Source: Pecten maximus (Eukaryota). Taken from it: 64,000 bases of DNA. The notes under the pieces were generated by a model that saw only the letters and a list, made by a program, of their open reading frames with translations, did no database searches and was not told the origin of the DNA. The DNA is taken from positions 50,654,001-50,718,000 of the forward strand of contig NC_047015.1 of the NCBI RefSeq assembly GCF_902652985.1, given 5' to 3'. Numbering within the stretch: position 1 is the first letter of the stretch; each line of letters opens with the position of its first letter. The position numbers and the translations under genes are program-made. Positions 1 to 58,753 of this stretch are shown piece by piece.

Positions 1-3000
1 CCGGAAGTGAAGTGATTACCACATATATCGGAAATTAAATGATCATCATTTATACCGGAAATTGTAGTGATCAACACATATACCGGAAGTGAAATGATCA
101 CCACATCAACAGGACATGACCGCCACACATATCGGTAATGAACTTAACACCACATATAACGAAAGTGACCACCACATCTATCGGAAAAGAAATGATCACC
201 ACCTATACAGGAAAAGATCGCCATATATACCGGGAATGAAATGACTGCAACAATATCGTAAATGAAATGACCACCTTATATACCGGAAATGAAGTGACAA
301 CTACAAAAACCTGAAATGAAATGATCACCACAAAAACCGGAAATGACCGTCACAAAAATCGGGAAGGAAATGACCACAAAAATACCGGAAAAGAAATTAC
401 CACCACATTTAACGGCAATGAAGTGACCGCCAAAAATTCCAGAAATGATATGACCATCAAATACACTGGAAGGAAAAAAACCCTCTACATACTCTGGAAA
501 TGAAATGACCACCACATATAGAGGAATCGACCACCATATACTGCCGGAAGTGAAATGACAACCATATAGTACCGGAAGTGGAATAACAACCAGATAGAAC
601 CGGAAATTGAATGACAGTCATATAGTATACCGGAAGTGGAACGACAACCATATAGTACCGGAAGTGGAATGGCAATCATATTGTACCGGAAACGAAATGT
701 CCACCAAAATACCGGAAACGAATCAACCACTTCATAACGAATTAACCATCCTGTATACAGTAATGGAAGTGACCATCACAGATACAGTAATGGAAGTGAC
801 CATCACATATACAGTAATGGAAGTGACCATCACATATATACAGTAATGGAAGTGACCATCATATATACAGTAATGGAAGTGACCATCACATATACAGTAA
901 TGGAAGTGACCATCACATATACAGTAATGGAAGTGACCATCACATATATACAGTAATGGAAGTGACCATCATATATACAGTAATGGAAGTGACCATCACA
1001 TATACAGTAATGGAAGTGACCATCACATATACAGTAATGGAAGTGACCAATCACATATATACAGTAATGGAAGTGACCATCACATATACAGTAATGAAGT
1101 GACCATCACATATACAGTAATGGAAGTGACCATCACATAAACAGTAATGGAAGTGACCATCACATATACAGTGATGGAAGTGACCATCACATATATACAG
1201 TAATGGAAGTGACCATCACATATATACAGTAATGGAAGTGACCAATCACATATATACAGTAACGGAAGTGACCATCACATATACAGTAACGGAAGTGACC
1301 ATCACATGTACAGTAATGGAAGTGACCATCACATCAACAGTAATGGAAGTGACCATCACATCAACAGTAATGGAAGTGACCATCACATATACAGTAATGG
1401 AAGTGACCATCACATCAACAGTAATGGAAGTGACCATCACATATACAAGAATGGAAGTGACCATCACATCAACAGTAATGGAAGTGACCATCACATATAC
1501 AGTAATGGAAGTGACCATCACATATACAAGAATGGAAGTGACCATCACATATACAAGAATGGAAGTGACCAATCACATATACAGTAATGGAAGTGACCAT
1601 CACATCAACAGTAATGGAAGTGACCATCACATATACAAGAATGGAAGTGACCATCACATCAACAGTAATGGAAGTGACCATCACATATACAGTAATGGAA
1701 GTGACCACCACATATACAGGAATGGAAGTGACCATCACATATATACAGTAATGGAAGTGACCATCACATATACAAGAATGGAAGTGACCAATCACATATA
1801 CAGTAATGGAAGTGACCATCACATATACAGTAATGGAAGTGACCATCACATATACAGTAATGGAAGTGACCATCACATATACAGTAATGGAAGTGACCAT
1901 CACATAACCATTAATGGAAGTGACCATCACATATACAGTAATGGAAGTGACCATCACATATACAGTAATGGAAGTGACCATCACATATACAGTAATGGAA
2001 GTGACCATCACATATACAGTAATGGAAGTGACCATCACATATACAGTAATGGAAGTGACCATCACACATATACAGTAATGGAAGTGACCATCACATATAC
2101 AAGAATGGAAGTGACCATCACATCAACAGTAATGGAAGTGACCATCACATATATACAGTAATGGAAGTGACCATCACATATACAGTAATGGAAGTGACCA
2201 TCACATATACACAGTAATGGAAGTGACCAATCACATATATACAGTAATGGAAGTGACCATCACATATACAGTAACGGAAGTGACCATCACATATACAGTA
2301 ATGGAAGTGACCATCACATATACAAGAATGGAAGTGACCATCACATCAACAGTAATGGAAGTGACCATCACATATACAGTAATGGAAGTGACCATCACAT
2401 ATACAGTAATTGAAGTGACCATCACATATATACAGTAATGGAAGTGACCATCATATATACAGTAATGGAAGTGACCATCACATATACAGTAATGGAAGTG
2501 ACCATCACATATACAGTAATGGAAGTGACCATCACATATATACAGTAATGGAAGTGACCATCATATATACAGTAATGGAAGTGACCATCACATATACAGT
2601 AATGGAAGTGACCATCACATATACAGTAATGGAAGTGACCAATCACATATATACAGTAATGGAAGTGACCATCACATATACAGTAATGAAGTGACCATCA
2701 CATATACAGTAATGGAAGTGACCATCACATAAACAGTAATGGAAGTGACCATCACATATACAGTGATGGAAGTGACCATCACATATATACAGTAATGGAA
2801 GTGACCATCACATATATACAGTAATGGAAGTGACCAATCACATATATACAGTAACGGAAGTGACCATCACATATACAGTAACGGAAGTGACCATCACATG
2901 TACAGTAATGGAAGTGACCATCACATCAACAGTAATGGAAGTGACCATCACATCAACAGTAATGGAAGTGACCATCACATATACAGTAATGGAAGTGACC

Positions 3001-5920
3001 ATCACATCAACAGTAATGGAAGTGACCATCACATATACAAGAATGGAAGTGACCATCACATCAACAGTAATGGAAGTGACCATCACATATACAGTAATGG
3101 AAGTGACCATCACATATACAAGAATGGAAGTGACCATCACATATACAAGAATGGAAGTGACCAATCACATATACAGTAATGGAAGTGACCATCACATCAA
3201 CAGTAATGGAAGTGACCATCACATATACAAGAATGGAAGTGACCATCACATCAACAGTAATGGAAGTGACCATCACATATACAGTAATGGAAGTGACCAC
3301 CACATATACAGGAATGGAAGTGACCATCACATATATACAGTAATGGAAGTGACCATCACATATACAAGAATGGAAGTGACCAATCACATATACAGTAATG
3401 GAAGTGACCATCACATATACAGTAATGGAAGTGACCATCACATATACAGTAATGGAAGTGACCATCACATATACAAGAATGGAAGTGACCATCACATATA
3501 CAGTAATGGAAGTGACCATCACATATACAGTAATGGAAGTGACCATCACATATACAGTAATGGAAGTGACCATCACATATACAGTAATGGAAGTGACCAT
3601 CACATATACAGTAATGGAAGTGACCATCACATATACAGTAATGGAAGTGACCATCACACATATACAGTAATGGAAGTGACCATCACATATACAAGAATGG
3701 AAGTGACCATCACATCAACAGTAATGGAAGTGACCATCACATATATACAGTAATGGAAGTGACCATCACATATACAGTAATGGAAGTGACCATCACATAT
3801 ATACAGTAATGGAAGTGACCAATCACATATATGCAGTAATGGAAGTGACCATCACATATACAGTAACGGAAGTGACCATCACATATACAGTAATGGAAGT
3901 GACCATCACATATACAAGAATGGAAGTGACCATCACATCAACAGTAATGGAAGTGACCATCACATATACAGTAATGGAAGTGACCATCACATATACAGTA
4001 ATTGAAGTGACCATCACATGTACAGTAATGGAAGTGACCATCACATATACAAGAATGGAAGTGACCATCACATCAACAGTAATGGAAGTGACCATCACAT
4101 ATACAGTAATGGAAGTGACCATCACATATACAGGAATGGAAGTGACCATCACATATAAACAGTAATGGAAGTGACCATCACATATATACAGTAATGGAAG
4201 TGACCAATCACATATATACAGTAATGGAAGTGACCATCACATATACAGTAACGGAAGTGACCATCACATATACAGTAATGGAAGTGACCATCACATATAC
4301 AAGAATGGAAGTGACCATCACATATACAGTAATGGAAGTGACCATCACATATACAGTAATGGAAGTGACCATCACATATACAGTAATTGAAGTGACCATC
4401 ACATGTACAGTAATGGAAGTGACCATCACATATACAAAAATGGAAGTGACCATCACATCAACAGTAATGGAAGTGACCATCACATATACAGTAATGGAAG
4501 TGACCATCACATATATACAGTAATGGAAGTGACCATCACATATACAGTAATGGAAGTGACCATCACATATACAGCTATGGAAGTGACCATCACATATACA
4601 GTGATGGAAGTGACCATCACATATACAGTAATGGAAGTGACCATCACATATATAGTAATGGAAGTGACCATCACATATACAGTAATGGAAGTGACCATCA
4701 CATATACAGTAACGGAAGTGACCATCACATCAACAGTAATGGAAGTGACCATCACATATACAAGAATGGAAGTGACCATCACATATACAGTAATGGAAGT
4801 GACCATCACATATACAGTAATGGAAGTGACCACCACATATACAGGAATGGAAGTGACCATCACATATATACAGTAATGGAAGTGACCATCACATATACAA
4901 GAATGGAAGTGACCAATCACATATACAGTAATGGAAGTGACCATCACATATACAGTAATGGAAGTGACCATCACATATACAGTAATGGAAGTGACCATCA
5001 CATATACAAGAATGGAAGTGACCATCACATATACAGTAATGGAAGTGACCATCACATAAACAGTAATGGAAGTGACCATCACATATACAGTAATGGAAGT
5101 GACCATCACATATACAAGAATGGAAGTGACCATCACATATACAGTAATGGAAGTGACCATCACATAAACAGTAATGGAAGTGACCATCACATATACAGTA
5201 ATGGAAGTGACCATCACATATACAGTAATGGAAGTGACCATCACATATACAGTAATGGAAGTGACCATCACATATACAGTAACGGAAGTGACCATCACAT
5301 ATACAGTAACGGAAGTGACCACCACATATACAAGAATGGAAGTGACCATCACATATACAGTGATGGAAGTGACACCACATATACAGTAATGGAAGTGACC
5401 ATCACATGTACAGTAATGGAAGTGACCATCACATATACAGTGATGGAAGTGACCATCACATATACAGTGATGAAAGTGACCATCACATATACAGTAATGG
5501 AAGTGACCATCACATATACCGTAATGGAAGTGACCATTACATATATACAGTAATGGAAATAACCATCACCATCACATACAGTAACGGAAGTGACCACCAC
5601 ATATACAAGAATAGAAGTGACCATCACATATACAGTGATGGAAATGACCATCACATATACAGTAATGGAAGTGACCATCACATATACAGTGATGGAAATG
5701 ACCATCACATATACAGTAATGGAAGTGACCATCACATATACAGTAATGGAAGTGACCATCACTTATACAGTAATGGAAGTGACCATCACATACAGTAACG
5801 GAAGTAACCATCACATATATACAGGACATGAAATGGACACCACATATATCAGAAATATACTGACCACCACCTATCTAACTGGAATGAAATTACTCCACGT
5901 GTAATGAAGTGACAACTATG
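1..5920. repeat. 27-bp minisatellite (consensus CAGTAATGGAAGTGACCATCACATATA); homogeneous core ~755-5820 (~185 units) with degenerate units on both flanks
   Basis: Tandem unit directly visible. Recurrent variants include CAAGAATGG, CATCAACAG, CCAATCAC and extra TA. All ORFs at 276-5904 are translations of this unit. Confidence 0.97.
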
Positions 5921-7291
5921 GCGTTTCGATTCCATCATATGATTAAATTAAGTGTGCATCCATTTACATGGTAATTAAATACATAGTTGATTAGCATGCA
6001 CCTTAATTCCGTTTTATTTATACGTGGAGTTTGACCCTTATATATCCTTTCCATACTTGTTCTGTATAGTTGTCGTTTTGTCAGCGAATTCGTCAATCGA
6101 TATATATATATATATATATTGTACTACAGTTTACATCAATCTATATATAGATTCGCGTGACGACCGTCCTTCAAGTACATGCATCTATGAGTACTCGAAG
6201 CGCATGTGATGCGTAATTTTAGTAATGCCGTCTTTTTATAGTAATTGTGTCAAAGTGGCGTCATCTTCTGATGGGAATTCCCAGAATATTTCGTGTACTG
6301 GAAACTATCATTGCGTCAGACATTAGCGTGCATACACGTACTTGTAAATATTTTGTTGTTTCCGAGGATTGTTCTATGCAGTCCTCTTTCTGCGGGATAA
6401 TTGTTAGTGGTTTATAAATAAACAATCCTTTAAACCTACTACAATTAAATTACATGTTCAGATTTTATTTTTAACGAAACTTCTTCAAAAACTGACATCG
6501 TACTGCTTTCCATGTTTTAAATGTAATCCGATTATCTTCATTTAATCACTGGTTGTGTGTAGGATGTTGAAGCTTATATAGAAACAGTGTTATCATTAGG
6601 ACACACAAGCGATGCTGTTAATATCAATCAATCAATCAATCATATTTTATTAAAGTGTCACATGTCAATACAATCATAATAAAACAGCATTTGAGACTTA
6701 GCATAAAATTGATATCGACATCCAGCCAATTTTGGCTTATGAGACACTATTAGAACATTATCTATATACACTATTAAATAAATATATAATATCATACAAT
6801 ATATCAATACGAATCAGAAATCATAATAGACAAACTAAAAGTACAAAGATCTAGTTCTTAAAAGAGTCATTATCGGTTTTAAAATATAACTGCATACGCA
6901 CATATATGGACGGAATGTATAAATAATTAAAAATGATAGCAACTATATTATGACTAGTACTTGTTTGAAAATACACTTGTACCAAAGCCAGTGATGGGAG
7001 AAGCACGAGAGTGGTTGAGCCTATCCCTACCGACAAGTCGCACAAATCCCATCACTGAATACTCTTTCAGAGTGACAGGTTAGATATGGTATAAATATCA
7101 ACATCTCTATCATTTATGTACATGCTAATACTATCATCATAAAATTTATAAATTTATACATAAGATATATGTGGATATCATTATGACTAAAAAAACATAG
7201 ACAGCATAAAATAATTATAAAATGTGTCTTAACTATATCAATTTTATGAATTAAAAGGCTATTAACAGACACGGAAAATAAGAAACAGATA

Positions 7292-10200
7292 TTAAATAAA
7301 TTGCATAAGCGTTCTTCTTCTACGTAACATTAAAAATACAGTTTTGGCAAGTAAAAATTGGACATCTGAATTTGTCATTAATAAATTAAACTTTCCAATA
7401 TGATCACAATTTTTAAAATTTACATCACTATGTTCCATTTGATTAAAAAGATTAACTCTTAAGTCACTATATGTATTACAGACACACAAAAAATGCATTT
7501 CGTTTTCGACTACATCCTCACAGAACGGACAATATCTCTCGTTTAATGGAGTAGGAGGTCTATTGTAGCGACCAGTCTCTACCATTAATGGTGCACTACC
7601 ACATCTCACCTTGGTTAGCGCGCTTCGGTAAGCTCTAGGCATGTAAATGTTCACATATTGCTCGGTTATTCGGTCTTTCTTATAAATCCTGTAAGTCCGT
7701 AATTTATTTCCATTAGGGTTGCCACGGTCATTCCACATCTGGCCAAACCACTCACTTTCGTCTTTATGTCTAATTTTAGATTTGATCATGTTCATGATTT
7801 GTTTCGTGGGTTTGGCTCCAGATCCTACGATGTCTTGGGAATCATATTTGCGGCTAAGCCGAAGTGCCCGCGAATCCCAGGAAGTTCCTCTCCGCTTGGA
7901 CCACAAATGAATTTTATTGAGTAAACGATCACTATTAACAGAGTTAACTCGACAGTATAGACGAAATACTTCGATGTGTTGCTTACTTTGCGTAGATAAC
8001 CATCCCATGTCTCCAATCATGCCGACGTTAGAGGTGTTCTTGGATGCACCCATAAAAACTCTCATAGCGCGATTTTGGACATTGTTTATCTCTTTTCTTT
8101 GGGGCTGTCCCCAAATACCGGAACAGTAAAGAAGGACAGGCTCAACAAGACTCTCATATAACTTTGTGAATACTGAATAAGTCATTCCACCGGCACTATA
8201 AAACTTAGAGATGAGGAGACCGAGGGCTCGGCTTGCGGATTTAGACAGTTCTTTCACCGCGATGTTCATATCGGCGTAATCGTCGAACCAGAGTCCTAAG
8301 TATTTATAACGGTCTTTACGTTCAAGAGAGTGTCCATTACAGGTGAACGAAAACTGAGTAGCAGGTATACTTTTATGTCTAAAATGCATGACTTTAGTCT
8401 TTCCAGCGTTAACAGAAAGGCGCCATCGAGAACACCAAGATGAGACAATGTTCAGAAGGGATTGGAGACCCTCTTCTGATGACGTCATTAACACAATGTC
8501 GTCGGCGTAAAAGAGACAGCTAAGCAAGACACCATCGATGTCAATACCAAATTCTGAAGCGTTAAGTTCCTCAATCAAGTCATTAATGTAAATTGCAAAG
8601 AGTGTTGGGGAGGCTAAACAACCTTGTTTTACCCCACGTGACACAGATAGCCAATCAGTGTGTAGGTTGTTGACGCGCACGCAGCAAGAAACACCATCAT
8701 AAAGAGCAAAAACAGCCTTGAAAATCTCACCTTTTATTCCAGTCTGTAGAAGTTTATACCATAAACAGTCTCTGACGACCGTATCAAAGGCTTTGCGTAG
8801 GTCTATAAAGCATGAATAGGTCGACTGTTTAGCGTTGATGCGATTTTTCACGACGCTGTATAGCGAATACACGTGGTCCTGACAACTTCTATCCTTCCTA
8901 AAACCATTCTGCGCGTCGTGTAGGATATTATTTTCCTCTAGCCAGGAAGAAAGACGACGGTTGAGGATATCGCAATAAACTTTACAAGGAACGGACAATA
9001 GGGTTATACCTCGGTAAGACAAAGGGTCCATAGGATCGGTACTATTTGGTTTGACAAGAGGGTTGATGATACCCTGCTTCCATTTATCAGGGACGATTCC
9101 ATGGTCGAAACAATAGCTGATCAATGAGAACATGATATCCACGCAGGCGTCGTTTTTTAACACTTCCGCCGGAATACCGTCGACTCCAGCCGCCTTACCT
9201 ACTTTGGTACGACATATTGCGTCCAGCACCTCCTGTCGTTGTATAGGTGCGTTGAGGTTTGATACATCCTGGTTGTTGTTTAATGGCACTGTATTATTTG
9301 TAACACGACCCTTCACCATCTCAAGGTGATCATCATCGTACGTTGTAGCTTCTACGTCGTTTGGCGCGTATAGACTTTCGTAGTCTGTTCGCCAACGTTC
9401 CAGAACATCGTGTGTGTTACTAATGATGTTTCCGTCGTCATCTTTAACAAATAGAGGTATATGTGAAGTTCTGTGATTAGCGATTCCTATATTCCCGATA
9501 TCCTTCCAAAAATCCCTTGAGTTAGGTTGCTCTAATTTATCATGTAGATCATTCACTTGTTTTGCCTGAAACTGACGTTTGACTTTCCTGTGTAACTTAT
9601 CGAATTCTTTCCGTTCTGTACAAAACAATTGCTTCAAACGGCGTTTTTGAGATTTATTAGTATCTATACATCTAAGCCAAGCACGCTCCTTGGTAGCAAC
9701 GGAGTTCCATTTACTCTTCAACTCATCGTTCCAATATGGTTTTGTAGTCGGTTTTACGGAAGAGTCGATGTTGGTTTTCGCGTGGACTCTCATACCGGCA
9801 TTGTCCATATTAAGATGTAAAAAGTCAACAAAATCGTCATATGCAGAATTAACATCTGCTCTATTGCTTAAATGGTTTTCCAGGCGTTCAATAGTTGCGT
9901 TTATATTGGGTAGGTATTGGTGTCCGAGTAGGAAGTCATTTGGAACTTTTTTGGCGTTATATCGGGTGCCAGAAGTCACGCTACCACCAATCTCGTGATT
10001 ACACTGCATATTGGAAATATTAACATTCACGGGAAGTAGCAGAGCGCATTCCAATAGAGAGTGATCCGGGTATGACATAGCTGGAATACCGTCAATGCTC
10101 TCAATCACTGCAGACATAGTCCTGACTTTAAAGTCCGTAACGAATTGCAGCTGATCGTGCGGTACAATCATATAATCGACTACCGATCTTCCCCTGGCGG

Positions 10201-10852
10201 ATATACATGTGAAGTTATTATCATCGTCATTATAACGGCCGTTCAGAATACACATGTTTGAATCAATACAGAAGTCAACAAAATGATCACCATAAGAGTT
10301 TAAAGTAGTATCTATGGAATGTCTGTGTTGAACACGGTCAACGCCTTCGATATAATCGGATAGGTCACCAGTTCTAGCATTGAAATCTCCAAAAATAAAC
10401 ACGTGACCTTCATTTTGGTACATGTGTACTTGATGTAAAAGTTCTGAATAGGCAATGCAGGGATCATGTGAATGAGTTGAGTTTTCAGGGGGGAAGTAAC
10501 ACACACACAGGCAGATGGTAAAATCGTCAGACTTAGATCTCATTTTTATCCAATAAACATCGTCTTTGTCTTTATTTAGATCAGATACAACGAAATAGTT
10601 CAGTATAGATGTTTTCAGAAGGAATCCTACCCCTCCAGAACCGCGTTTGGCGCGCGTATGAATGTTAGCTCTGTTGTGACCAAAGAAACTATACCCATCA
10701 ACGGCTATTTGTTCGTTGTTCGTTAAAAACGTTTCACACAATGCAATAACGTCGAGATTAAAGTGTTGAATAACTGTACCTCTAAACCGAGAGTTATCAT
10801 TTTCATGCCTGGACCAACCGTTTACGTTCCAACCACCTAGTCGAAGACTGGC
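7292..10852 (-). CDS. LINE ORF2: apurinic-like endonuclease + reverse transcriptase + C-terminal CCHC zinc finger
   Basis: The open frame extends 37 codons upstream of the track's TTG start (ASLRLGGWNVNGW...DVIALCET). APE motifs GDFNAR, SVVDY, YPDH; RT motifs QNGFR, IDLRKAFD, GVKQG, YADD, YKYLG; C-terminal CPFC..E...H....C. No internal stops. Confidence 0.95.
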   Translation of the reverse strand, partial: ASLRLGGWNVNGWSRHENDNSRFRGTVIQHFNLDVIALCETFLTNNEQIAVDGYSFFGHNRANIHTRAKRGSGGVGFLLKTSILNYFVVSDLNKDKDDVYWIKMRSKSDDFTICLCVCYFPPENSTHSHDPCIAYSELLHQVHMYQNEGHVFIFGDFNARTGDLSDYIEGVDRVQHRHSIDTTLNSYGDHFVDFCIDSNMCILNGRYNDDDNNFTCISARGRSVVDYMIVPHDQLQFVTDFKVRTMSAVIESIDGIPAMSYPDHSLLECALLLPVNVNISNMQCNHEIGGSVTSGTRYNAKKVPNDFLLGHQYLPNINATIERLENHLSNRADVNSAYDDFVDFLHLNMDNAGMRVHAKTNIDSSVKPTTKPYWNDELKSKWNSVATKERAWLRCIDTNKSQKRRLKQLFCTERKEFDKLHRKVKRQFQAKQVNDLHDKLEQPNSRDFWKDIGNIGIANHRTSHIPLFVKDDDGNIISNTHDVLERWRTDYESLYAPNDVEATTYDDDHLEMVKGRVTNNTVPLNNNQDVSNLNAPIQRQEVLDAICRTKVGKAAGVDGIPAEVLKNDACVDIMFSLISYCFDHGIVPDKWKQGIINPLVKPNSTDPMDPLSYRGITLLSVPCKVYCDILNRRLSSWLEENNILHDAQNGFRKDRSCQDHVYSLYSVVKNRINAKQSTYSCFIDLRKAFDTVVRDCLWYKLLQTGIKGEIFKAVFALYDGVSCCVRVNNLHTDWLSVSRGVKQGCLASPTLFAIYINDLIEELNASEFGIDIDGVLLSCLFYADDIVLMTSSEEGLQSLLNIVSSWCSRWRLSVNAGKTKVMHFRHKSIPATQFSFTCNGHSLERKDRYKYLGLWFDDYADMNIAVKELSKSASRALGLLISKFYSAGGMTYSVFTKLYESLVEPVLLYCSGIWGQPQRKEINNVQNRAMRVFMGASKNTSNVGMIGDMGWLSTQSKQHIEVFRLYCRVNSVNSDRLLNKIHLWSKRRGTSWDSRALRLSRKYDSQDIVGSGAKPTKQIMNMIKSKIRHKDESEWFGQMWNDRGNPNGNKLRTYRIYKKDRITEQYVNIYMPRAYRSALTKVRCGSAPLMVETGRYNRPPTPLNERYCPFCEDVVENEMHFLCVCNTYSDLRVNLFNQMEHSDVNFKNCDHIGKFNLLMTNSDVQFLLAKTVFLMLRRRRTLMQFI

Positions 10853-12025
10853 CTAACGGCGCTCAAAGCGGTTTTGACCTTGCGTAGTGTGATTATCACG
10901 CTGATGATGACGTCGACCTTGACGTTGGTCATTACGCCTGTCATTAGAAAAACCATGATTGCGATTATCGCGAGGTACGTCACGAGCGGGCGAGTGTCTG
11001 CGCCGTACGGTCCTCCATCCATCCGACTCGCTATGCATGTTACGTGTGTCGTCACGCTCCGGTTCCTTTACCTTTACTAGTCTGTTACCATACACCTTGT
11101 AGTCGTGTTGTTTACCAATTTCGCGCAAAACAGTGTGTAAAGAGCGCTGGGTATCCAACTCACTTTTAGACATGTCATTGTCAATATATACACTTGAGTA
11201 ATCGCGAGATTGTTTCAAAGTGTTCTTTTTCTTCATTACTGTTTGTTTTTGAGTTAATGTCTCGATAGTAGCAATTACTACCCCTGGTTTGTCACCTCTA
11301 CGTTGTTTACGTTCAGCCTGTACAATGTTTATGTTTGGTAGCCGGAGGCCGTCTCTAATCATCGCATTCACTTTTTGTTTTGTGAACTCGGGTCCTCCCT
11401 CACCCTTTTCCTGTTGGAGCTCCTTTAGGTTTCTGATGACTATGTTGGTTTTCCTATTGATATTTTCTGTGTCACCTGATGAATTAATTCTGTTGTTGAT
11501 AACTCCATGGACATCGGTGTGTAGATCTTTTATTTTATCGTTCATGTCCTGTTTCACTTTGTTTATTTCTGTGTTTACATAGGAGGTCAAATTCTGTTTA
11601 GCTGTTTGAAGTTTTTTGTCGATCTTGGTGTCAATAATTTGTGAAAGTTTATCAGTCAAATTATCTTCTAAAGCTACCATTCTATCACTTAAGCTGCCAT
11701 GAATGGTGTTGAGGCGTGTTGTTAATTGTTGTATCAGGTGCCTGAGTTCGGCCATATCGGAGTTCGAGTGTTGTGTGGGGGTGGGTAGGGAACACTCTGA
11801 GTCATTACAGTTCTTTTGCTTTTTATTCTCATTGTCAATAGTGTGTCTGTTATCGGCACCGGCTTTACGTTTTCTTGTGTCAGGGGTTTCTGAACCTTTC
11901 GTATCTGTGGTTACATTCTCAGAAGTCGTAGCGACAGGGGTAATGTTACCGACCGCCATTACCTCACTTACATACATTGCCGCAGCCTGGTTGTTCAAAG
12001 GGTCTGTACTGACCTGTTGATCCAT
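10853..12025 (-). CDS. LINE ORF1 (coiled coil + RRM-like nucleic-acid-binding region)
   Basis: ATG at 12025 (MDQQ...). Heptad-like segment LRHLIQQLTTRL..., followed by KTNIVIRNLKE...VYIDNDMS, typical of LINE ORF1p. Lies directly upstream of ORF2. Confidence 0.85.
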   Translation of the reverse strand: MDQQVSTDPLNNQAAAMYVSEVMAVGNITPVATTSENVTTDTKGSETPDTRKRKAGADNRHTIDNENKKQKNCNDSECSLPTPTQHSNSDMAELRHLIQQLTTRLNTIHGSLSDRMVALEDNLTDKLSQIIDTKIDKKLQTAKQNLTSYVNTEINKVKQDMNDKIKDLHTDVHGVINNRINSSGDTENINRKTNIVIRNLKELQQEKGEGGPEFTKQKVNAMIRDGLRLPNINIVQAERKQRRGDKPGVVIATIETLTQKQTVMKKKNTLKQSRDYSSVYIDNDMSKSELDTQRSLHTVLREIGKQHDYKVYGNRLVKVKEPERDDTRNMHSESDGWRTVRRRHSPARDVPRDNRNHGFSNDRRNDQRQGRRHHQRDNHTTQGQNRFERR

Positions 12026-14320
12026 AACAAACGCAGTTCGATGCGGTAATATGTACCACAAGAATAGTATCACTGCGGAAACAGTTCAAATTGTTCAAAT
12101 CAGTGTAAATTAAGAGGAAACTCACCAAAAAAACACAATGAAGTTGAGCTGAATTCAAAACACAGTCATTCAGTAGCAGGGGCGACAACCGTTACTTGAA
12201 TATCCCTAATGTTAAAACTCATTTGGATTTTTCCCCTTTTCATGGTGTATATTATATTTGATGTTTGATTTTGATGACAACACGACAATTTTCAATTCAA
12301 GATGAATTATCAATATTATAAAGATCTAATAATGGATAGAATGGACATCTTATCAATGAAATACCAAAGAAATATTAAAGCTTTTAATTATAATTTCGTA
12401 ATCAATATTTATTCATGTAGATACAGACATTTACTGACACGCGTACTTACTTATATACGTAATAACCTATACATGTACGTGTTAAATTTTATGACATCAT
12501 ATTTCGACTTCGACTTAAAGGTTGGGATTCGAGGTTTTGAGTTTGACAATTTTCGACCCCACTCTCTTGATATATGAATTCGCCTGTGTTATCCATTATA
12601 ATACGATGTTTTAATTGTCAAAATAATTGGGCCCACATCGGGGCAATGACTTTACAAGGAGAGATTACATATTAGCCGATATGCAAATAGTTACCAGGCT
12701 CATAACTATTATATTAAATTCATCGGTAAGGATAGGTAAAGGATGCCCGGTAATATATACAGGGCCCGTAAGTTTTGTTTCCCATTAAAATGAGACTACA
12801 TCGACAGCATAGATAACATATCTATATTTTACTATGCATTATATATATACATATAATTACATTAAACAACAAGCATGCATATGTGGTATCAACGGGGTTT
12901 TCCGGCGTCGTCTGCTCATCAAGAAACAACACAATTAAAGCACAATATTATCGCCGAACCATAATTTACTAATGATTTAAATACATTTTCCGTTAGTTTA
13001 TATATTGTAGAACAATGAAAATGTAGTACATATATACCTTCGTGTGAGTTAAGATGTAGGTAAACTGAATACTGTCCGGAACTTGCTGTAGATAACAGCG
13101 ACTAAGAAGCCTCCTCTTCCTCGTACAACCACGTGGACTTGTTTACTACCGGTGGTGTGAGCGAGTTCGGCACCGCGTGTTCGTGAATCAGATGATGTGA
13201 CGAGCCGAATTTAAATGATAATTCAACCAATCAGAACGTCGGAAATATTTCGTCATTCTTATTTTTTTCATAAATGGTCAGCTTGGCTACGTGTTATTTT
13301 AGTGTCTGATATTCAAGGTCAGGGCAAACAGATATATTTAGTCGATGTGAAACACATGTGTGTCAAAGGTCAAAAGGTTATACACATATTTTACAGTTCA
13401 ACGATTTTAATCACTTACCGAAGACGAAAATAACACTAACTTGTTACTTGTCATCGAGCTTTCCTGTTAGGTTTGGGAGCCTCTCTGAGCAATTTGGTAC
13501 ACATCATGTATTTTAACTTTAAATATCGATATTACTCTCATTTTATATCATATATATCTATAAAGAGATGGCAGTTATTTGTTGATTATCAACATTGTTT
13601 ACGCAATTCAAAAATTCTTCAGCTATCAGTATATATATGCCGAGTAAACAAAATCAATCAATAAAAATTGTTGCTCTGAACTAAGAACAATAACATATTT
13701 ACATACTGATTAATTATCTATAGAAACCTATATATAAATATGAGATAATTATATTGTATAGTACAAGCCTATATATGTGGTATCGTGTCACGAAGTGACC
13801 CGGCGTGACACTCCTCCATAGCATGGCACTATTTAAAATTATCACATACATGTACAATCCAAAGTACTTCTGAGGATTGATGTTTCCCGTTTTGGTTATG
13901 AATAACGTTTGTGACAATTACGCCTTAATAAATAAATAAAACATATTCGTACAGTGACAATGTGGAGTTTTAAAAACATTTTAATTAGACAGTAGATACA
14001 TGTATAAGAATTAGATTTTGTATGTATTATTCAGCACAGCAGCAACCCGTCCCCACACCCTTCACCAAAATCTCACCAATATACCCCGGAAAGGGACTCG
14101 GTCACTTTACTCTACCCTTCAGCATCCCCTACACAACTCATTTCTAGTCTCGTCATTTAAATTACCGAAAGAACAATTAGAATGTTAAATTATTTTAATA
14201 TTCGCTAAATGGTTTCAATATTTCATAATTTCATTAATATACACTGTTGAATATGTTGATATTCTATGTAAAATATATATGGTCGTTTATTGTCATGTTT
14301 CATTTTTATCAAACTTGTAT

Positions 14321-23189: not shown

Positions 23190-25824
23190 AGAAATTCAAA
23201 TTATTTCTGTAACTTAGAAAAAAGAAACTATGTAAATAAAACAATTTGTGAATTAGTAACAGATTCCGGTAATGTGCTTGAGGATATGGATGAAATTTTA
23301 AAGGAAGAAGCAAATTTTTTTAACAAATTGTATAAGTCTAGTGATAGGGAGCTGCAGGACACCGAGAGCTCAGAGTTTTTTTAATCATATGGTAAAGCTA
23401 AGTGCAGAACAAAAAGCGAGTTGTGAGGGTTTCTTGAAAGTAGGTGAACTATTCTTAGCTTTAAAAAATATGAAAAATGGGAAAAGTCCAGGGTCTGATG
23501 GTTTTGGGGCAGAATTCTATAAATTCTTTTGGAAAGATTTAGGAACTCTTCTTTGTAGATCAGTTAATTATGCATATGAATATGGTAAACTTTCAGATTT
23601 TCAATGTCAAGGTATTATTACATGTTTGCCAAAAGAGGGAAGGGATAGAAGATATATAAAAAATTGGAGACCAATATCCCTATTAAATGTAGATTACAAA
23701 ATAGCAGCAGCAGCCATTGCTAATAGAATAAAGCCATTATTACCTCACATAATTAGTAATACACAAACAGGGTTTATCAAGGGTAGGTTTATAGGGGAAA
23801 ACACACGACAACTTTATGATATTATGCAACTTTTAGAAGAACAAAAAATACCAGGATTATTATACATGATTGATTTTGAGAAAGCTTTTGACTCCATAGA
23901 GTGGGATTTCATAGATAAATCGTTGGAAAGTTTTAATTTTGGAGAATCAATAAGAAGATGGTTTCAAACTTTATATAAAAATTCAAAAAGTTGTATTATT
24001 AATAATGGACATATGTCAGATTTTTTCAGTCTTCACCGTGGTTGTCGTCAAGGCGACCCATTATCTCCCTACATTTTTATCATAGGTGTGGAAATTCTAT
24101 CATTAGCTCTAAAAGCCAATCCAGATGTAAAACCACTTAAAATCTTAGGAAAAACCTTCCTTTTAGGTCAATATGCAGATGATGCCTATATGCTGTTAGA
24201 TGGATCTAGTCAATCTTTATATGCCACAGTTGAAACATTAAAACTTTTCTCTACCACATCAGGTCTGAAAATAAATACTACGAAGTCTAATGTATACTGG
24301 CTAGGCAGCAAAAAGTTTTCAGGAGAAAGAATTTGTGAGGATTTAAACTTATCATGGTCTACACAGAACTTTAAATTACTAGGAATCATCTTCTATTTGA
24401 ACTTGGAAGATATGGAAAGACTCAATTATAATAATAGATTAAAAGACACAGAACGAAAACTTAGATTTTGGGCTAAAAGAGATCTCTCATTAATTGGTAG
24501 AGTAACAGTGATTAAATCTATCATTATTCCTACATATATTCATTTATTCAGTTCTATTCCAAACCCTTCACCAAATATTATTAAAAAGCTCAACAGCATA
24601 CTATATCAATTCATTTGGAATTACAAAGTTGAAAAAATTAAAAGAGACACATTGATTGGTCTTTTAGAGGATGGAGGGCTTAAAATGATTCATATAACTT
24701 CTTTTATCAAATATTTGAAATTAAAATGGTTGAAAAGACTACTTGACATTGGAGAGGCACCCTGGAAATCACTAGTATCTTACATTTTGCCTATAGATCC
24801 AAATATCACAGTTCAATTGAATTCAGATATACTAAAAAAAGTAGGAAAACAGATTAAAAATAAGTTTTGGAAAGATGTTATTTTTGCACTAGTAGATGTT
24901 CAAAATAAACCACAAACCTTAGAGGAATATCTAAATGAAGATTTGATCAACTTTCTTCCTTTCAATGAAATTAATCAAGGTATTAGATGGAAACAATTTG
25001 GGCTTAATAAAGTTATAGATCTTTTTCAAAATGGGAAAGTAAAAAAATGGCCAGAGGTACATCATATCCAGGGATTAGGATTTTTACAGTTTTATGCACT
25101 AGTTAATAAAATCAATGGAGAATGGAAAGCGGAATATAGAATAAGAATTGCACAGGGGGAAAATATAGAGGTTTGTGAAACTAATAGTATAATTCATCAA
25201 ATAAAATTCACTGATAACTTGAAATTCCTATATGAAAAACTTGTGAAGTCAGTTTTTAAAAAACCTATTAAAAGTCAAGAAAAGTGGAAAATGAAATTAG
25301 ATTTAAGGGATAATTTTGACTTTGACACATATTCATCTGTATTTAATTACACACGAGAAACTAAACTACAAGCTTTTCAATTTAAGATTCATCATAGAAT
25401 ATTAGCAACAAAATCCTTTCTTTTTAAAATCAACATTGAAAATGATAATTTGTGCTATTTTTGTAGTAGAGAAGAAGAATCACTGGAACACATCCTATAT
25501 AGCTGTTACTTCTCAAATGAATTATTGCAAGAATTTATTGTATGGTATTGTGAGAATGATGATGTTGAAAATAACTTTACCTTAAGTATAACTGATGTTA
25601 TATTTGGAAATATAAGATTTAAGCAAAGGTTGAATCACTTTTTGTTATTACTAAGATACCATATTTATGCAAGTAAGTGGAAAAACACCCATCCATCATT
25701 TCAGATATGCAAATTTTATTTTATTCAAGTCATCAAATTAGAGAAATATATTGCAGCAAAACAAAACAGAAATCAGGCATTTCAGGAAAAGTGGGGATCA
25801 TTTGTTGAAATATTAAATAATTAA
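23190..25824 (+). pseudogene. Truncated L1/Tx1 ORF2 (RT + zf-RVT), endonuclease missing, +1 frameshift in the T7 run at 23376-23382
   Basis: NSNYFCNLEKRN, KSPGSDG, WRPISLLNVDYK, DFEKAFD, GCRQGDPLSP, YADD, CYFC..EEESLEH...C. Confidence 0.9.
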
Positions 25825-30135: not shown

Positions 30136-30677
30136 CAAAACTCCAAAATTAGTGTTATTCAAATATTCGTCTTAGAGGTAGGACGTATGAAAGACCTAGC
30201 TATTGCTGTACCCGGTGACATATTGAAGATGTAAACTATCAGTCCCCTATCTTGATCAGTTCATTTTTGTTTAAGTTGGTGCAGTTAAAGAGATAAAAAG
30301 ATATATAAAGAGATAAGAAGAGATATAAAGAGAAATTGTGCACAAGTTTGAAAATATCTTACTGTTTTCTACATTTTAAGACCTCATTTACTTTCTGTTA
30401 AATTTATTTTCATCATAAAAAAATTCTTTCCGGTGGTCAGTTTGGACAAGCGGAATTGATGGGGTTGTAAATTATGTTATAAATGGTCCTGAAACACAGT
30501 GAATGCATGAACGAACATGACATTCTATGTTCTTTAACTTTATTTTTTACATCATACAATGGTGAAACTGGAATTTATATTCACGTTCATATCGGTATCA
30601 ACGAGAAATGAAAATTTTAAAATATTTCTTTAGTTTAGTTTATTCATTCATCTTAAGTGTTTTCCTTCTTTTCAGAG

Positions 30678-33600
30678 ATGTGTTCCCTTAATATCGCCCT
30701 GATTGTCCTGTTGACGATTGTTGTACGCACTATTGGTTATGAGTGCGACAGATCCGCCACGGTATGCGAGACGACTCTCGTTATCACACACAGCCAGACG
30801 ATGTTGCACGACACTGCGTCACAGGTTTACCCAGCCAATGGAAAGCTGTATAGGTATGACGATGTGAATCAAACCACCGCTATTCCTGCTGATGAAGTTA
30901 TGACCGCTGATGGATGGGAAGACAATAGACTAGTTGTTGTTGCGAATGAAAGCCTTCCAGGCCCGCCGATTATAGTTTATGTGGGACAAAGGGTCAAAGT
31001 TCGTGTCATCAACATGCTACCATCAGATACTGTGACAATACACTGGCATGGTTTACCTTTGTATGGAAGGCCGTGGATGGATGGTACTCCTTTCTTGACT
31101 CAATGCCCGATTCTCCCTGGCCAGTCGTTTACTTACGACTTCTATGCAGAACCCAAAGGGACACATTGGTATCACTCGCACGCTGGAAATCAAAGAACGA
31201 AAGGTTTGAGCGGAGCTTTCATTATCAAAGAGCGGACGTCAACTGCCAGAGAGCATATCATGACGATACAAGATTGGAATCATAACTGGGACGGGGATAT
31301 GGATTTGCAAAAGTTGATGAAAGCTCAAGCAAATCGTTGATCGTCAGCGCATACCTTTCAGATTTTCTCTAGATGGAGCAATGTTTCTTCCTTTCTATGT
31401 TTCTTCCGTCCTGATCAATGGCAGGGCGCGTTTCTACAACGAAACAGGACAGCATAACGGGGCACCTTTGTCCGATTTCCCCGTTGAAGCAGGAGTAACC
31501 TACAGGTTCAGAGTAATCCATGTTGGTGTTATGTATCCTATTAGAATCTCAATTGACCAACACATGCTCACTTTAGTTGCTTCAGACGGACACGACATCC
31601 AACCGGTAGTTGCAGAATCCTTTATCATTACCGCAGGCGAACGATACGACTTTGAAATAAGTACTGATCAACCTATAGGAAACTACTGGATACGAGCCGA
31701 AACCTTGGAAGAAATTATGCATAAATCTGAAGCTGTTCTCCGCTACAATGGCGCCGATGCATCTCAATACCCGTTAACTACTAGAAAGACATGCACTCCA
31801 AACGACAGATGTTTGGTTGTAAACTGTCCGTTTGCAACATATCCAGCAGACACGTACACAGACTGTGTACAATTTAATGAACTCAAATCAGCTGTAAACG
31901 ACCCGGCACCAGAACCACCATCACCGGATACATTCAAAGAACATTTTACGAATTTCGGTATCGTTATTGGACGACCGTCAGTGAATGGTATTGTGTTCAA
32001 AATGCCTACAGTGCCAGCACTCACGCAACCTTTTGAAGTTGGTCCTACATGTGACAAAAATGACTGCGGTGAAGAGACGATATGTGCCTGCACTCATTCA
32101 ATCAACACTAACCACAATGACGTTATACAACTAGTGATGACGAACATGGGAATCGGAGGATTGAATTCCCATCCAATTCATCTACACGGCTACTCATTCT
32201 ACGTATTGAAAATGGGTTTTGCCACTTACAACATGACCACCGGAAAATATATTTCGCAAAATCCGGATATCGACTGTCGAGGAAATGGGGACCAGAGTTT
32301 CTGTAACCACGCTACATGGAGTAATTCTACCTGGCTTGGGAACAATGTTCCGGGGTTGAACTTGGTCAATCCCCCACGGAAGGATACATTGAACATACCT
32401 CATGGTTCATATGCTATTGTTAGGTTCAAGGCCAATAACCCAGGTGTATGGATGTTGCATTGCCACATACAGCTACACATGTCACTTGGAATGAGTATGA
32501 TCATCAACAGCTCGTACGGTATGCATCCAGACCCGCCAAAAGCGTTCCCCGTCTGCCATAGCTTTCCCTCCACGTACCGCGAAGACCTTCTAGACCAACA
32601 GCCGCAAAGTACAACCACTGAGCCACGTCCAATCGCTTCATCTCCTGAAGTCAAAATTGTGACACAGATTGTCAAAGAAGGTAAGTTACTGGGAGTTTGT
32701 ACCAAAGAGTCCATTTTATTCATTTCATCAAATATTTTGAAATATTAACATTCACCTTAGTTAATTGATTAATTTAGTTTTAATAGTCTCAATAAGAAAT
32801 GAATATTTTACACATCGGCTTCAAAGGGTCATCAAGGCAAAACATAATTGAATTACGTGGTTTCTGCACTTCAATCCAACAGAGTACCCGTACTTTCTCG
32901 GATTGCCTTGACAGTTCTTTTCTTTTCTTTGGATCTCCTATCTACCGTACTCCTTCCTTACTCTAACTCTGGGGCTACCAGTGTTCAATTTAGCTTTTAC
33001 CTTAACAGAGAAGACGCGTGTACATGCGTTTTCATAAATTACGACACACATTGATATGCCGAACTCATTGGTGAAGGAAAAGGATTGCGTTTTTAGAACT
33101 ATCAATTAACATATCTAATTATATGTTTCATCGAAAACCGATCATCATATGCATTAGTTTCAATATGTCATGGTGGCTCCTTGAGATCTTAATACTGTGT
33201 GTTGTGATGCATATTTATTTTCAAGCCCAATTCAACAAAATATATCTAATTTTAGATGGTCAGTTGGAATATTCTGAATAAACATTTTATGAACGAGTCT
33301 GGACTTTGTATTTAGTATGTTTTGTATGGTTCGAATTTTCTTCAGAAATGTAGCTACGAATGAAAACATGGTCAAATAGATAAGATTTGTAATCATTGTA
33401 TAAAACAGAGCATTAAGAATTAAAATAAAAATAATAATTTAACAAAATTTACACCAAGGGAAAGTCCACAGTAGGAAAGAGAATAATAATACATCAAGAT
33501 AATGTATTACAATTTAAATTTTCAATTTACAGAAACTATTTACGTCTCAGGCGATAAAACTAGCATTTCTTATGTTTGTTAACGTGTCCCGACACTTTAT

Positions 33601-57199: not shown

Positions 57200-58753
<1,554 letters not shown>

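Follow-up and report, generated by a model that had tools for sequence, protein, structure and literature searches.

An in-frame amber codon joins ORF1 and ORF2 across a clade of animal LINEs: a candidate readthrough site with a predicted long-range RNA duplex

Background

How the second open reading frame (ORF2) of LINEs is translated is a long-standing question, and stop-codon readthrough was previously described for viruses. The accessible parts of reviews of LINE ORF2 translation give reinitiation and StopGo, not readthrough (PMC5972666, PMC5009743); in the first of these, L1 is described with a 63-nt spacer followed by an AUG, and SART1 with an overlapping stop-start. For viruses, the available portion of PMC13517186 describes UAG-G contexts as weak by themselves and dependent on RNA structure further downstream: in MoMLV a structure beginning at nucleotide 9 past the stop, in CIRV pairing over >3.5 kb. 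In tombusviruses, such long-range pairing has been proposed to cull truncated templates and to favour cis replication (accessible parts of PMC3234231 and PMC5893793).

We describe here a LINE that can be set beside these three systems. As in mammalian L1 and silkworm SART1, its RNA would be bicistronic with low-level, unconventional translation of ORF2, but both the spacer/AUG layout of L1 and the stop-start of SART1 are absent. As in gag-pol of MoMLV, a structural ORF and an ORF bearing the reverse transcriptase (RT) share one frame across UAG-G, although MoMLV has a local pseudoknot (PMC13517186, available portion) and the present element is a LINE in which we found neither a local structure nor a Pfam protease. 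The element also resembles p33/p92 of the tombusvirus CIRV and its PRTE-DRTE interaction, which combine UAG-G, a polymerase made as a C-terminal extension and pairing over ~3.5 kb. In the parts of PMC3234231 and PMC5893793 available to us, however, the tombusvirus proximal element sits as a bulge within a large local stem-loop and pairs with the 3' UTR, whereas we found no local stem-loop, and a longer duplex (about 9-20 bp) is predicted with its partner in the ORF2 coding sequence; the hosts and the classes of element are also unrelated. By analogy, the element may work like tombusvirus and gammaretrovirus readthrough while belonging to neither.

Results and discussion

Element, junction and encoded proteins

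The window (the whole analysed stretch of 64,000 nucleotides of Pecten maximus DNA) carries on its minus strand a full-length RTE-X-type LINE of about 5.57 kb (12190..~6620). Its parts are as follows:

6620..12190, minus strand: whole RTE-X-type LINE, with a 5' end common to four copies within 1 nt
12026..12190, minus strand: 5' untranslated leader, from the shared 5' end to the first ATG of ORF1
10853..12025, minus strand: ORF1, 390 aa, first ATG at 12025 and TAG at 10855-10853
10852..10855, minus strand: in-frame amber codon and following G (UAG-G) at the ORF1/ORF2 joint, candidate readthrough site
10823..10852, minus strand: first ten post-stop codons, with silent sites conserved; they would supply the proximal arm of the predicted long-range duplex
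7292..10852, minus strand: ORF2, 1186 codons, without start codon; APE endonuclease, RT and C-terminal Cys/His motif
7569..7593, minus strand: distal arm of the predicted duplex, ORF2 codons for PLMVETGR, ~3.26 kb downstream of the stop
6620..7291, minus strand: 3' UTR, ending with AATAAA and a (GATT)n tail

The four full-length copies have a mutual identity of 98.8-99.8%, and the family appears to be a recently active one; its many dispersed copies are 5'-truncated and share the simple-repeat 3' tail, as is typical of LINEs. Consistent with an APE-type LINE, ORF2 encodes an APE endonuclease (Pfam Exo_endo_phos, 8-232) followed by a reverse transcriptase (RVT_1, 611-855). Pfam gave no protease domain in the element; MoMLV uses a protease.

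ORF1 and ORF2 are, as the first-pass annotation reported, one reading frame with a single amber codon: the minus strand reads CGC CGT TAG, then GCC AGT CTT CGA CTA GGT GGT TGG AAC, and stays open from 10852 to 7292. There is no spacer, and the first Met of ORF2 is codon 104, beyond the WNVNG and LCET motifs. The assignment of the conserved Asn to the former motif was borne out, N9 aligning in the profile with N14 of the human L1 endonuclease, so that an ORF2 starting at codon 104 would lose catalytic parts.

Membership in RTE-X is likely. Compared by eye with the alignment in PMC10294476, the RT resembles RTEX-1_LG and RTEX-1_BF, not Proto2-1_CS1, and at least two Solen grandis consensuses labelled RTE-X share the TAG-G junction (also by eye, in a supplement seen as about 400 letters per sequence); the S.grandis_10 consensus, matched by its junction motif, bears the same label (supplement file 25). 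The plan of an ORF1 plus an APE-RT ORF2 is shared with RTE-X, but ORF1 here has a predicted L1-like fold and no esterase match (none in 29 ORF1s), whereas some RTEX ORF1s are esterases (PMC3905857, accessible part). The in-frame stop is unmentioned in the accessible parts of PMC10294476, PMC7846101, PMC11203168, PMC3905857 and PMC4559204, and our literature searches returned no report of readthrough in RTE-X or other LINEs; Repbase and subscription papers may note the stop. Named relatives come from Mytilus and Mercenaria, and representatives at 50% identity are mostly fragments without context. The in-frame stop also explains why predicted gene models of these proteins are truncated or wrongly spliced.

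Sequence searches for the ORF1 family were uninformative, and a weak search for longer ORF1-bearing proteins found none among 1749 candidates. The model of ORF1p (pLDDT and secondary structure) contains a coiled coil (88-179), an RRM and a CTD (about 190-320) and a disordered Arg-rich tail (324-390). The ten best Foldseek matches of this model are all L1 ORF1p (E 4.7e-6 to 8.5e-4), and its structural alignment to human L1 ORF1p (VIA) gave Z 9.9 and rmsd 2.6 over 90 aligned residues; an L1-like fold is thus predicted.

Conservation of the in-frame stop

A single copy might carry a private nonsense mutation in an otherwise continuous frame, and the alignment of copies and relatives refuted this for the present junction. 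Within the own genome, TAG GCC was read in 12/12 DNA matches, including four from a second family. Among protein-match loci (the best 30 of 56 matches), the in-frame TAG lies 6-12 codons before the WN motif in 30/30 and is followed by G in 29/30, these 30 loci falling into 11 families down to 40% identity. Such a recurrence of the same in-frame TAG is far beyond chance.

In metagenome and genome contigs 92 loci were detected, of which 68 were scorable (21 had no N-terminus and 3 no upstream stop in the contig). The stop found within 20 codons is TAG in 53, TAA in 1 and TGA in 1, the TAA and TGA versions being L067 and L114; in the remaining 13/68 it is farther off, and these include damaged copies, distant outgroups, an ATG lineage and one fusion. 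The 55 near-stop loci and the 11 own-genome families were clustered into 56 families from several animals, with TAG in 54/56 and G next in 44/56.

A junction-blind search was also run with the ORF2 C-terminus against three genomes (40 contigs taken, 39 of them from this search). Seven contigs were then set aside (3 without a long frame, 2 cut by an edge, 2 broken at the 5' end). In 30 of the remaining 33, a long ORF1 terminates at an in-frame TAG, 1 is a fusion, and in 2 the ORF1 lies in another frame; ten of these 33 records had already come up in the earlier contig scan. The 19 most distant families are all new and all have TAG, with linkers of up to about 300 codons, and a second tally gave G after the stop in 31/36. 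As controls, TAG accounts for 4/33 of the stops that end ORF2 and for 36/112 of the nearest upstream stops in the two alternative frames. From the stop to the first endonuclease motif, the linker varies from 4 to about 300 codons and remains open and in frame. The shared-frame TAG layout is therefore clade-wide, not a private mutation, and includes the conserved in-frame UAG followed by G that is a hallmark of type III readthrough. Junction hexamers match listed type III contexts in 23/80 cases, the UAGGCC of the window family being unlisted. A codon-usage test per column gave three columns at p<1e-3, one of them near the stop.

Dozens of animal LINE contigs were encountered in the bacterial genome bins G001, G002 and G003, most likely as contamination by host DNA; among 301 genomes from the family of G001, matches occurred in G001 and G002 only. 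Viral contigs contained no relatives of the element.

Elongation, restart or splicing at the junction

The annotation had offered two mechanisms, programmed readthrough and AUG-independent translation of ORF2; the second is possible, yet accounts for less. According to it, ribosomes would terminate and restart in frame just past the stop without AUG, releasing a free ORF2p, possibly with help from the duplex described below. Unconventional termination-reinitiation is indeed reported for L1 and SART1, the latter requiring a downstream structure (accessible parts of PMC5972666 and PMC5009743); restart would also preserve the frame, and lineages with a free, ATG-started ORF2 exist (L069/L077, L216). 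However, an AUG overlapping or shortly following the ORF1 stop, the hallmark of termination-reinitiation, is generally missing, and an ATG before the first endonuclease motif, which would have offered a conventional start, is rare (1/56 families; 4/30 in the junction-blind set). Where the linker has its shortest common length (31 families), the post-stop codon specifies V/I/L/F in 30, as the first hydrophobic residue of the endonuclease, and differs from AUG by at least two changes in 20/31. This codon therefore behaves as an elongation codon, not as a start, and a restart would have to use a first codon that obeys protein constraint and is mostly not near-cognate. Restart moreover leaves unexplained the near-universal UAG-G, the open linkers of up to ~300 codons and the sense-codon fusion L126/L209, and UGGGA, the calicivirus-type reinitiation motif, occurs in just 4/53 upstream regions. 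We consider it unlikely.

The TAG could alternatively double as a 3' splice acceptor (AG|G), the ATG then coming from an mRNA made by splicing or trans-splicing. This would account for the TAG-only pattern and the following G, and two Mytilus gene models do splice across the junction; these two models, however, use different introns on near-identical sequence. No acceptor signature was found: the upstream region has no pyrimidine tract (T 14% and pyrimidines 39% in 55 families; 20% and 44% in 30 junction-blind families), and another AG competes within 18 nt in 84% of families and in 14/30. TAA and TGA versions exist, and no genomic copy of the window family joins a 5' part to the junction. One contig, from a run guessed to be RNA, covers 9651-11107 unspliced with no joints listed, which is weak evidence against splicing; none of the RNA runs on record is listed as containing the element. 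We give this explanation very little credence.

Relatives departing from the layout

The first-pass annotation would have been undermined by copies with a sense codon at this place; one relative has it, but it is not the rule and copies keep the TAG. In L126/L209 (G001:C632, a single contig), TTC CAC stands where its sister L127 has TAG TAC, with no indel, so that ORF1 and ORF2 form one fused frame of 1487 codons; it is nested among TAG families (support 99/94). Also nested among TAG families, L069/L077 has an ATG before the endonuclease and no ORF1 was seen; L216 has such an ATG plus a 731-codon ORF in another frame. L235 (=L133; G003:C13:858000-865500), with a 440-codon ORF1 in another frame overlapping ORF2 by about 65 codons, is either a frameshift variant or a damaged copy. 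Since L069/L077, L216 and L235 do without the layout, fusion to ORF1p is not obligatory.

In L219 (G001:C637), about 300 extra open codons separate the TAG from the endonuclease. Among about 16 truncated copies of the window family, L144 and L145 (G000:C1:58892183; C11:2852419) start 14 and 10 nt upstream of the TAG, and a copy from another family (G000:C13:10943633) starts 21 nt upstream of it. RNA cut or degraded at the stop could produce such breakpoints; none near the TAG is seen in the sister family, and breakpoints elsewhere coincide too.

Constraint at silent sites without detected local structure

The small hairpin that had been noticed after the stop did not hold up: its letters are present, but it is absent from the predicted minimum-energy folds, and no local structure is common to the relatives. 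Folding of the junction region in four windows was no better than shuffles (z 0.05 to 0.70), the 60-nt sliding z over 53-56 families was flat, a consensus helix scan from +1 to +150, through which pseudoknots were also probed, was not clearly above synonymous shuffles, and pairing within +600 nt of the stop was null. The junction thus has no detected local pseudoknot or stem-loop after a short spacer, another type III hallmark.

Constraint beyond the protein is nevertheless seen immediately after the stop. In 12 sister pairs (one of 13 pairs was left out because L060 seemed to be frame-damaged), silent-site identity over codons 1-10 is 52/78 conserved residues versus 32.9 expected (z 4.65), and it is at background over codons 11-30. 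CGG starting at +6 to +10, in various codon phases, occurs in 32/56 families versus 10.5 expected; the motif was picked after viewing the data, and 2000 shuffles gave a maximum of 21.

Long-range pairing

Pairing was tested on full-length families, the 56-family set mostly ending before the distal site. A first, cruder scan indicated a partner near the ORF2 end but was insufficient alone because one control query also peaked (z 6.3). After removal of nine near-duplicate copies, 12 families with 7-12-codon linkers were compared for pairing of +1 to +24 with codons 1082-1105: own partners gave -22.4 kcal/mol versus -15.3 for swapped partners (permutation p<1e-4), and synonymous shuffles gave -12.9. 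The identical own-versus-swapped test on a second window was null. In a scan of the whole element with seven discovery families, codons 1082-1105 ranked first among 259 windows on either measure, and nothing comparable appeared with control queries; pairing with the own partner held in five held-out families (p=1/120, 0.008) and in two subsets without close sisters (p<0.001). Compensatory changes are also seen, one helix position being C-G, U-A, A-U or U-G across five families.

Seven families with 6-codon linkers pair with codons 1156-1179 instead (-17.2 versus -10.5 shuffled); their partner, at about codons 1165-1170, is the best of 252 windows (z -6.4), with own versus swapped reaching only p=0.06. 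The predicted distal partner lies 3.2-3.5 kb downstream of the stop, within ORF2, and differs between subgroups, while the proximal arm stays near +9. Mean pairing peaks at +9 to +22, which matches the spacer geometry of MoMLV (PMC13517186) and the long-distance case of CIRV (PMC3234231) as given in the accessible parts of these papers; the UA of the stop pairs little on average. In the window family itself, the duplex (partner 7593-7569) is predicted at -22.0 versus -15.5 +/- 3.0 kcal/mol for synonymous shuffles (2% of 300 as good) and begins at the stop itself, not at +9; the distal site ranks second among the windows of the element, and third in the sister family. The predicted duplex is cleaner in L140, L142 and L157.

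Across the 19 distant families, seven regions were tried for a common partner and none proved significant (lowest p=0.005); three families with 16-codon linkers likewise gave no partner. In L219, L222, L225 and L228, a G-rich post-stop arm matches the end of ORF2 or the early 3' UTR over 9-11 bp, but taken together these matches fall short of significance. The type III hallmark of pairing between the sequence just 3' of the stop and a 3' region is accordingly predicted, with covariation, in two subgroups. Complementarity and covariation together suggest that +9 to +22 pairs with the ORF2 partner.

A duplex of this kind raises two further explanations. A-to-I editing within it could make the UAG a Trp codon, an amber/W-type switch as in hepatitis delta virus: UAG needs one edit, and the predicted duplex adjoins it, reaching the AG in some families. 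However, mean pairing of the A is 0.30, not above swapped partners (0.36), and the sequence upstream of the stop does not pair. Copied-back RNA should moreover leave TGG copies, none of which was seen at the junction in the loci examined; this argument assumes for the present element the cis preference that is a property of L1. Editing is, in our view, very improbable. The duplex could otherwise serve RNA packaging, reverse transcription or protection from nonsense-mediated decay, ORF2 being reached through unassisted, leaky readthrough of UAG-G. Its distal arm is near the 3' end, where copying begins, and distant families have no detectable shared partner, but the proximal arm remains tied to the stop at about +9 though the distal site moved, and we regard such a role, with readthrough left unaided, as extremely doubtful.

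Proposed mechanism and its significance

Programmed readthrough of the UAG, yielding an ORF1-ORF2 fusion, is the best reading of these sequences, and we hold it to be quite probable. Of the mechanism proposed initially, readthrough gained strong comparative support, and the local hairpin as stimulator gave way to a long-range candidate: the stimulator is most likely composed of UAG-G, a spacer of about 8 nt and a duplex of about +9 to +22 with the partner at the ORF2 end, and this duplex, if formed in cells, would probably stimulate readthrough. The majority of ribosomes would terminate at the UAG and release ORF1p, and a few would insert an amino acid and produce a fusion of ~1,577 aa comprising ORF1p, endonuclease and reverse transcriptase, in which the disordered ORF1p tail could act as a linker. 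The rate of readthrough would fix the ORF1p:ORF2p ratio, as in gag-pol readthrough. As the partner lies near the end of ORF2, only near-full-length RNA would yield enzyme.

More broadly, we lean, with moderate confidence, towards the view that a clade of animal LINEs makes a Gag-Pol-like RT fusion by UAG readthrough switched by pairing over >3 kb, with synthesis from full-length RNA only and tethering by the coiled coil. If true, long-range control of readthrough would extend from plant RNA viruses to animal retrotransposons, would give cis preference and RNA quality control a simple basis, and would leave the enzyme tethered to its own particle through the ORF1 coiled coil. How ORF2 is translated can be tested directly at this clade-wide candidate site, given its dozens of natural variants, the relative with a sense codon and the defined duplex.

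Other features of the window

Three other regions, all on the plus strand, contain coding frames. A second LINE ORF of another type (23302-25824; Pfam RVT_1 and zf-RVT) is probably L1/Tx1-like. Two adjoining frames at 30657-32748 resemble, presumably, a multicopper oxidase, and a frame at 58172-58753 resembles what we take to be an exon of an RrmJ/FtsJ-type rRNA methyltransferase. Finally, positions 1-6000 are occupied by a long, strand-skewed tandem repeat of short period with duplicated blocks.
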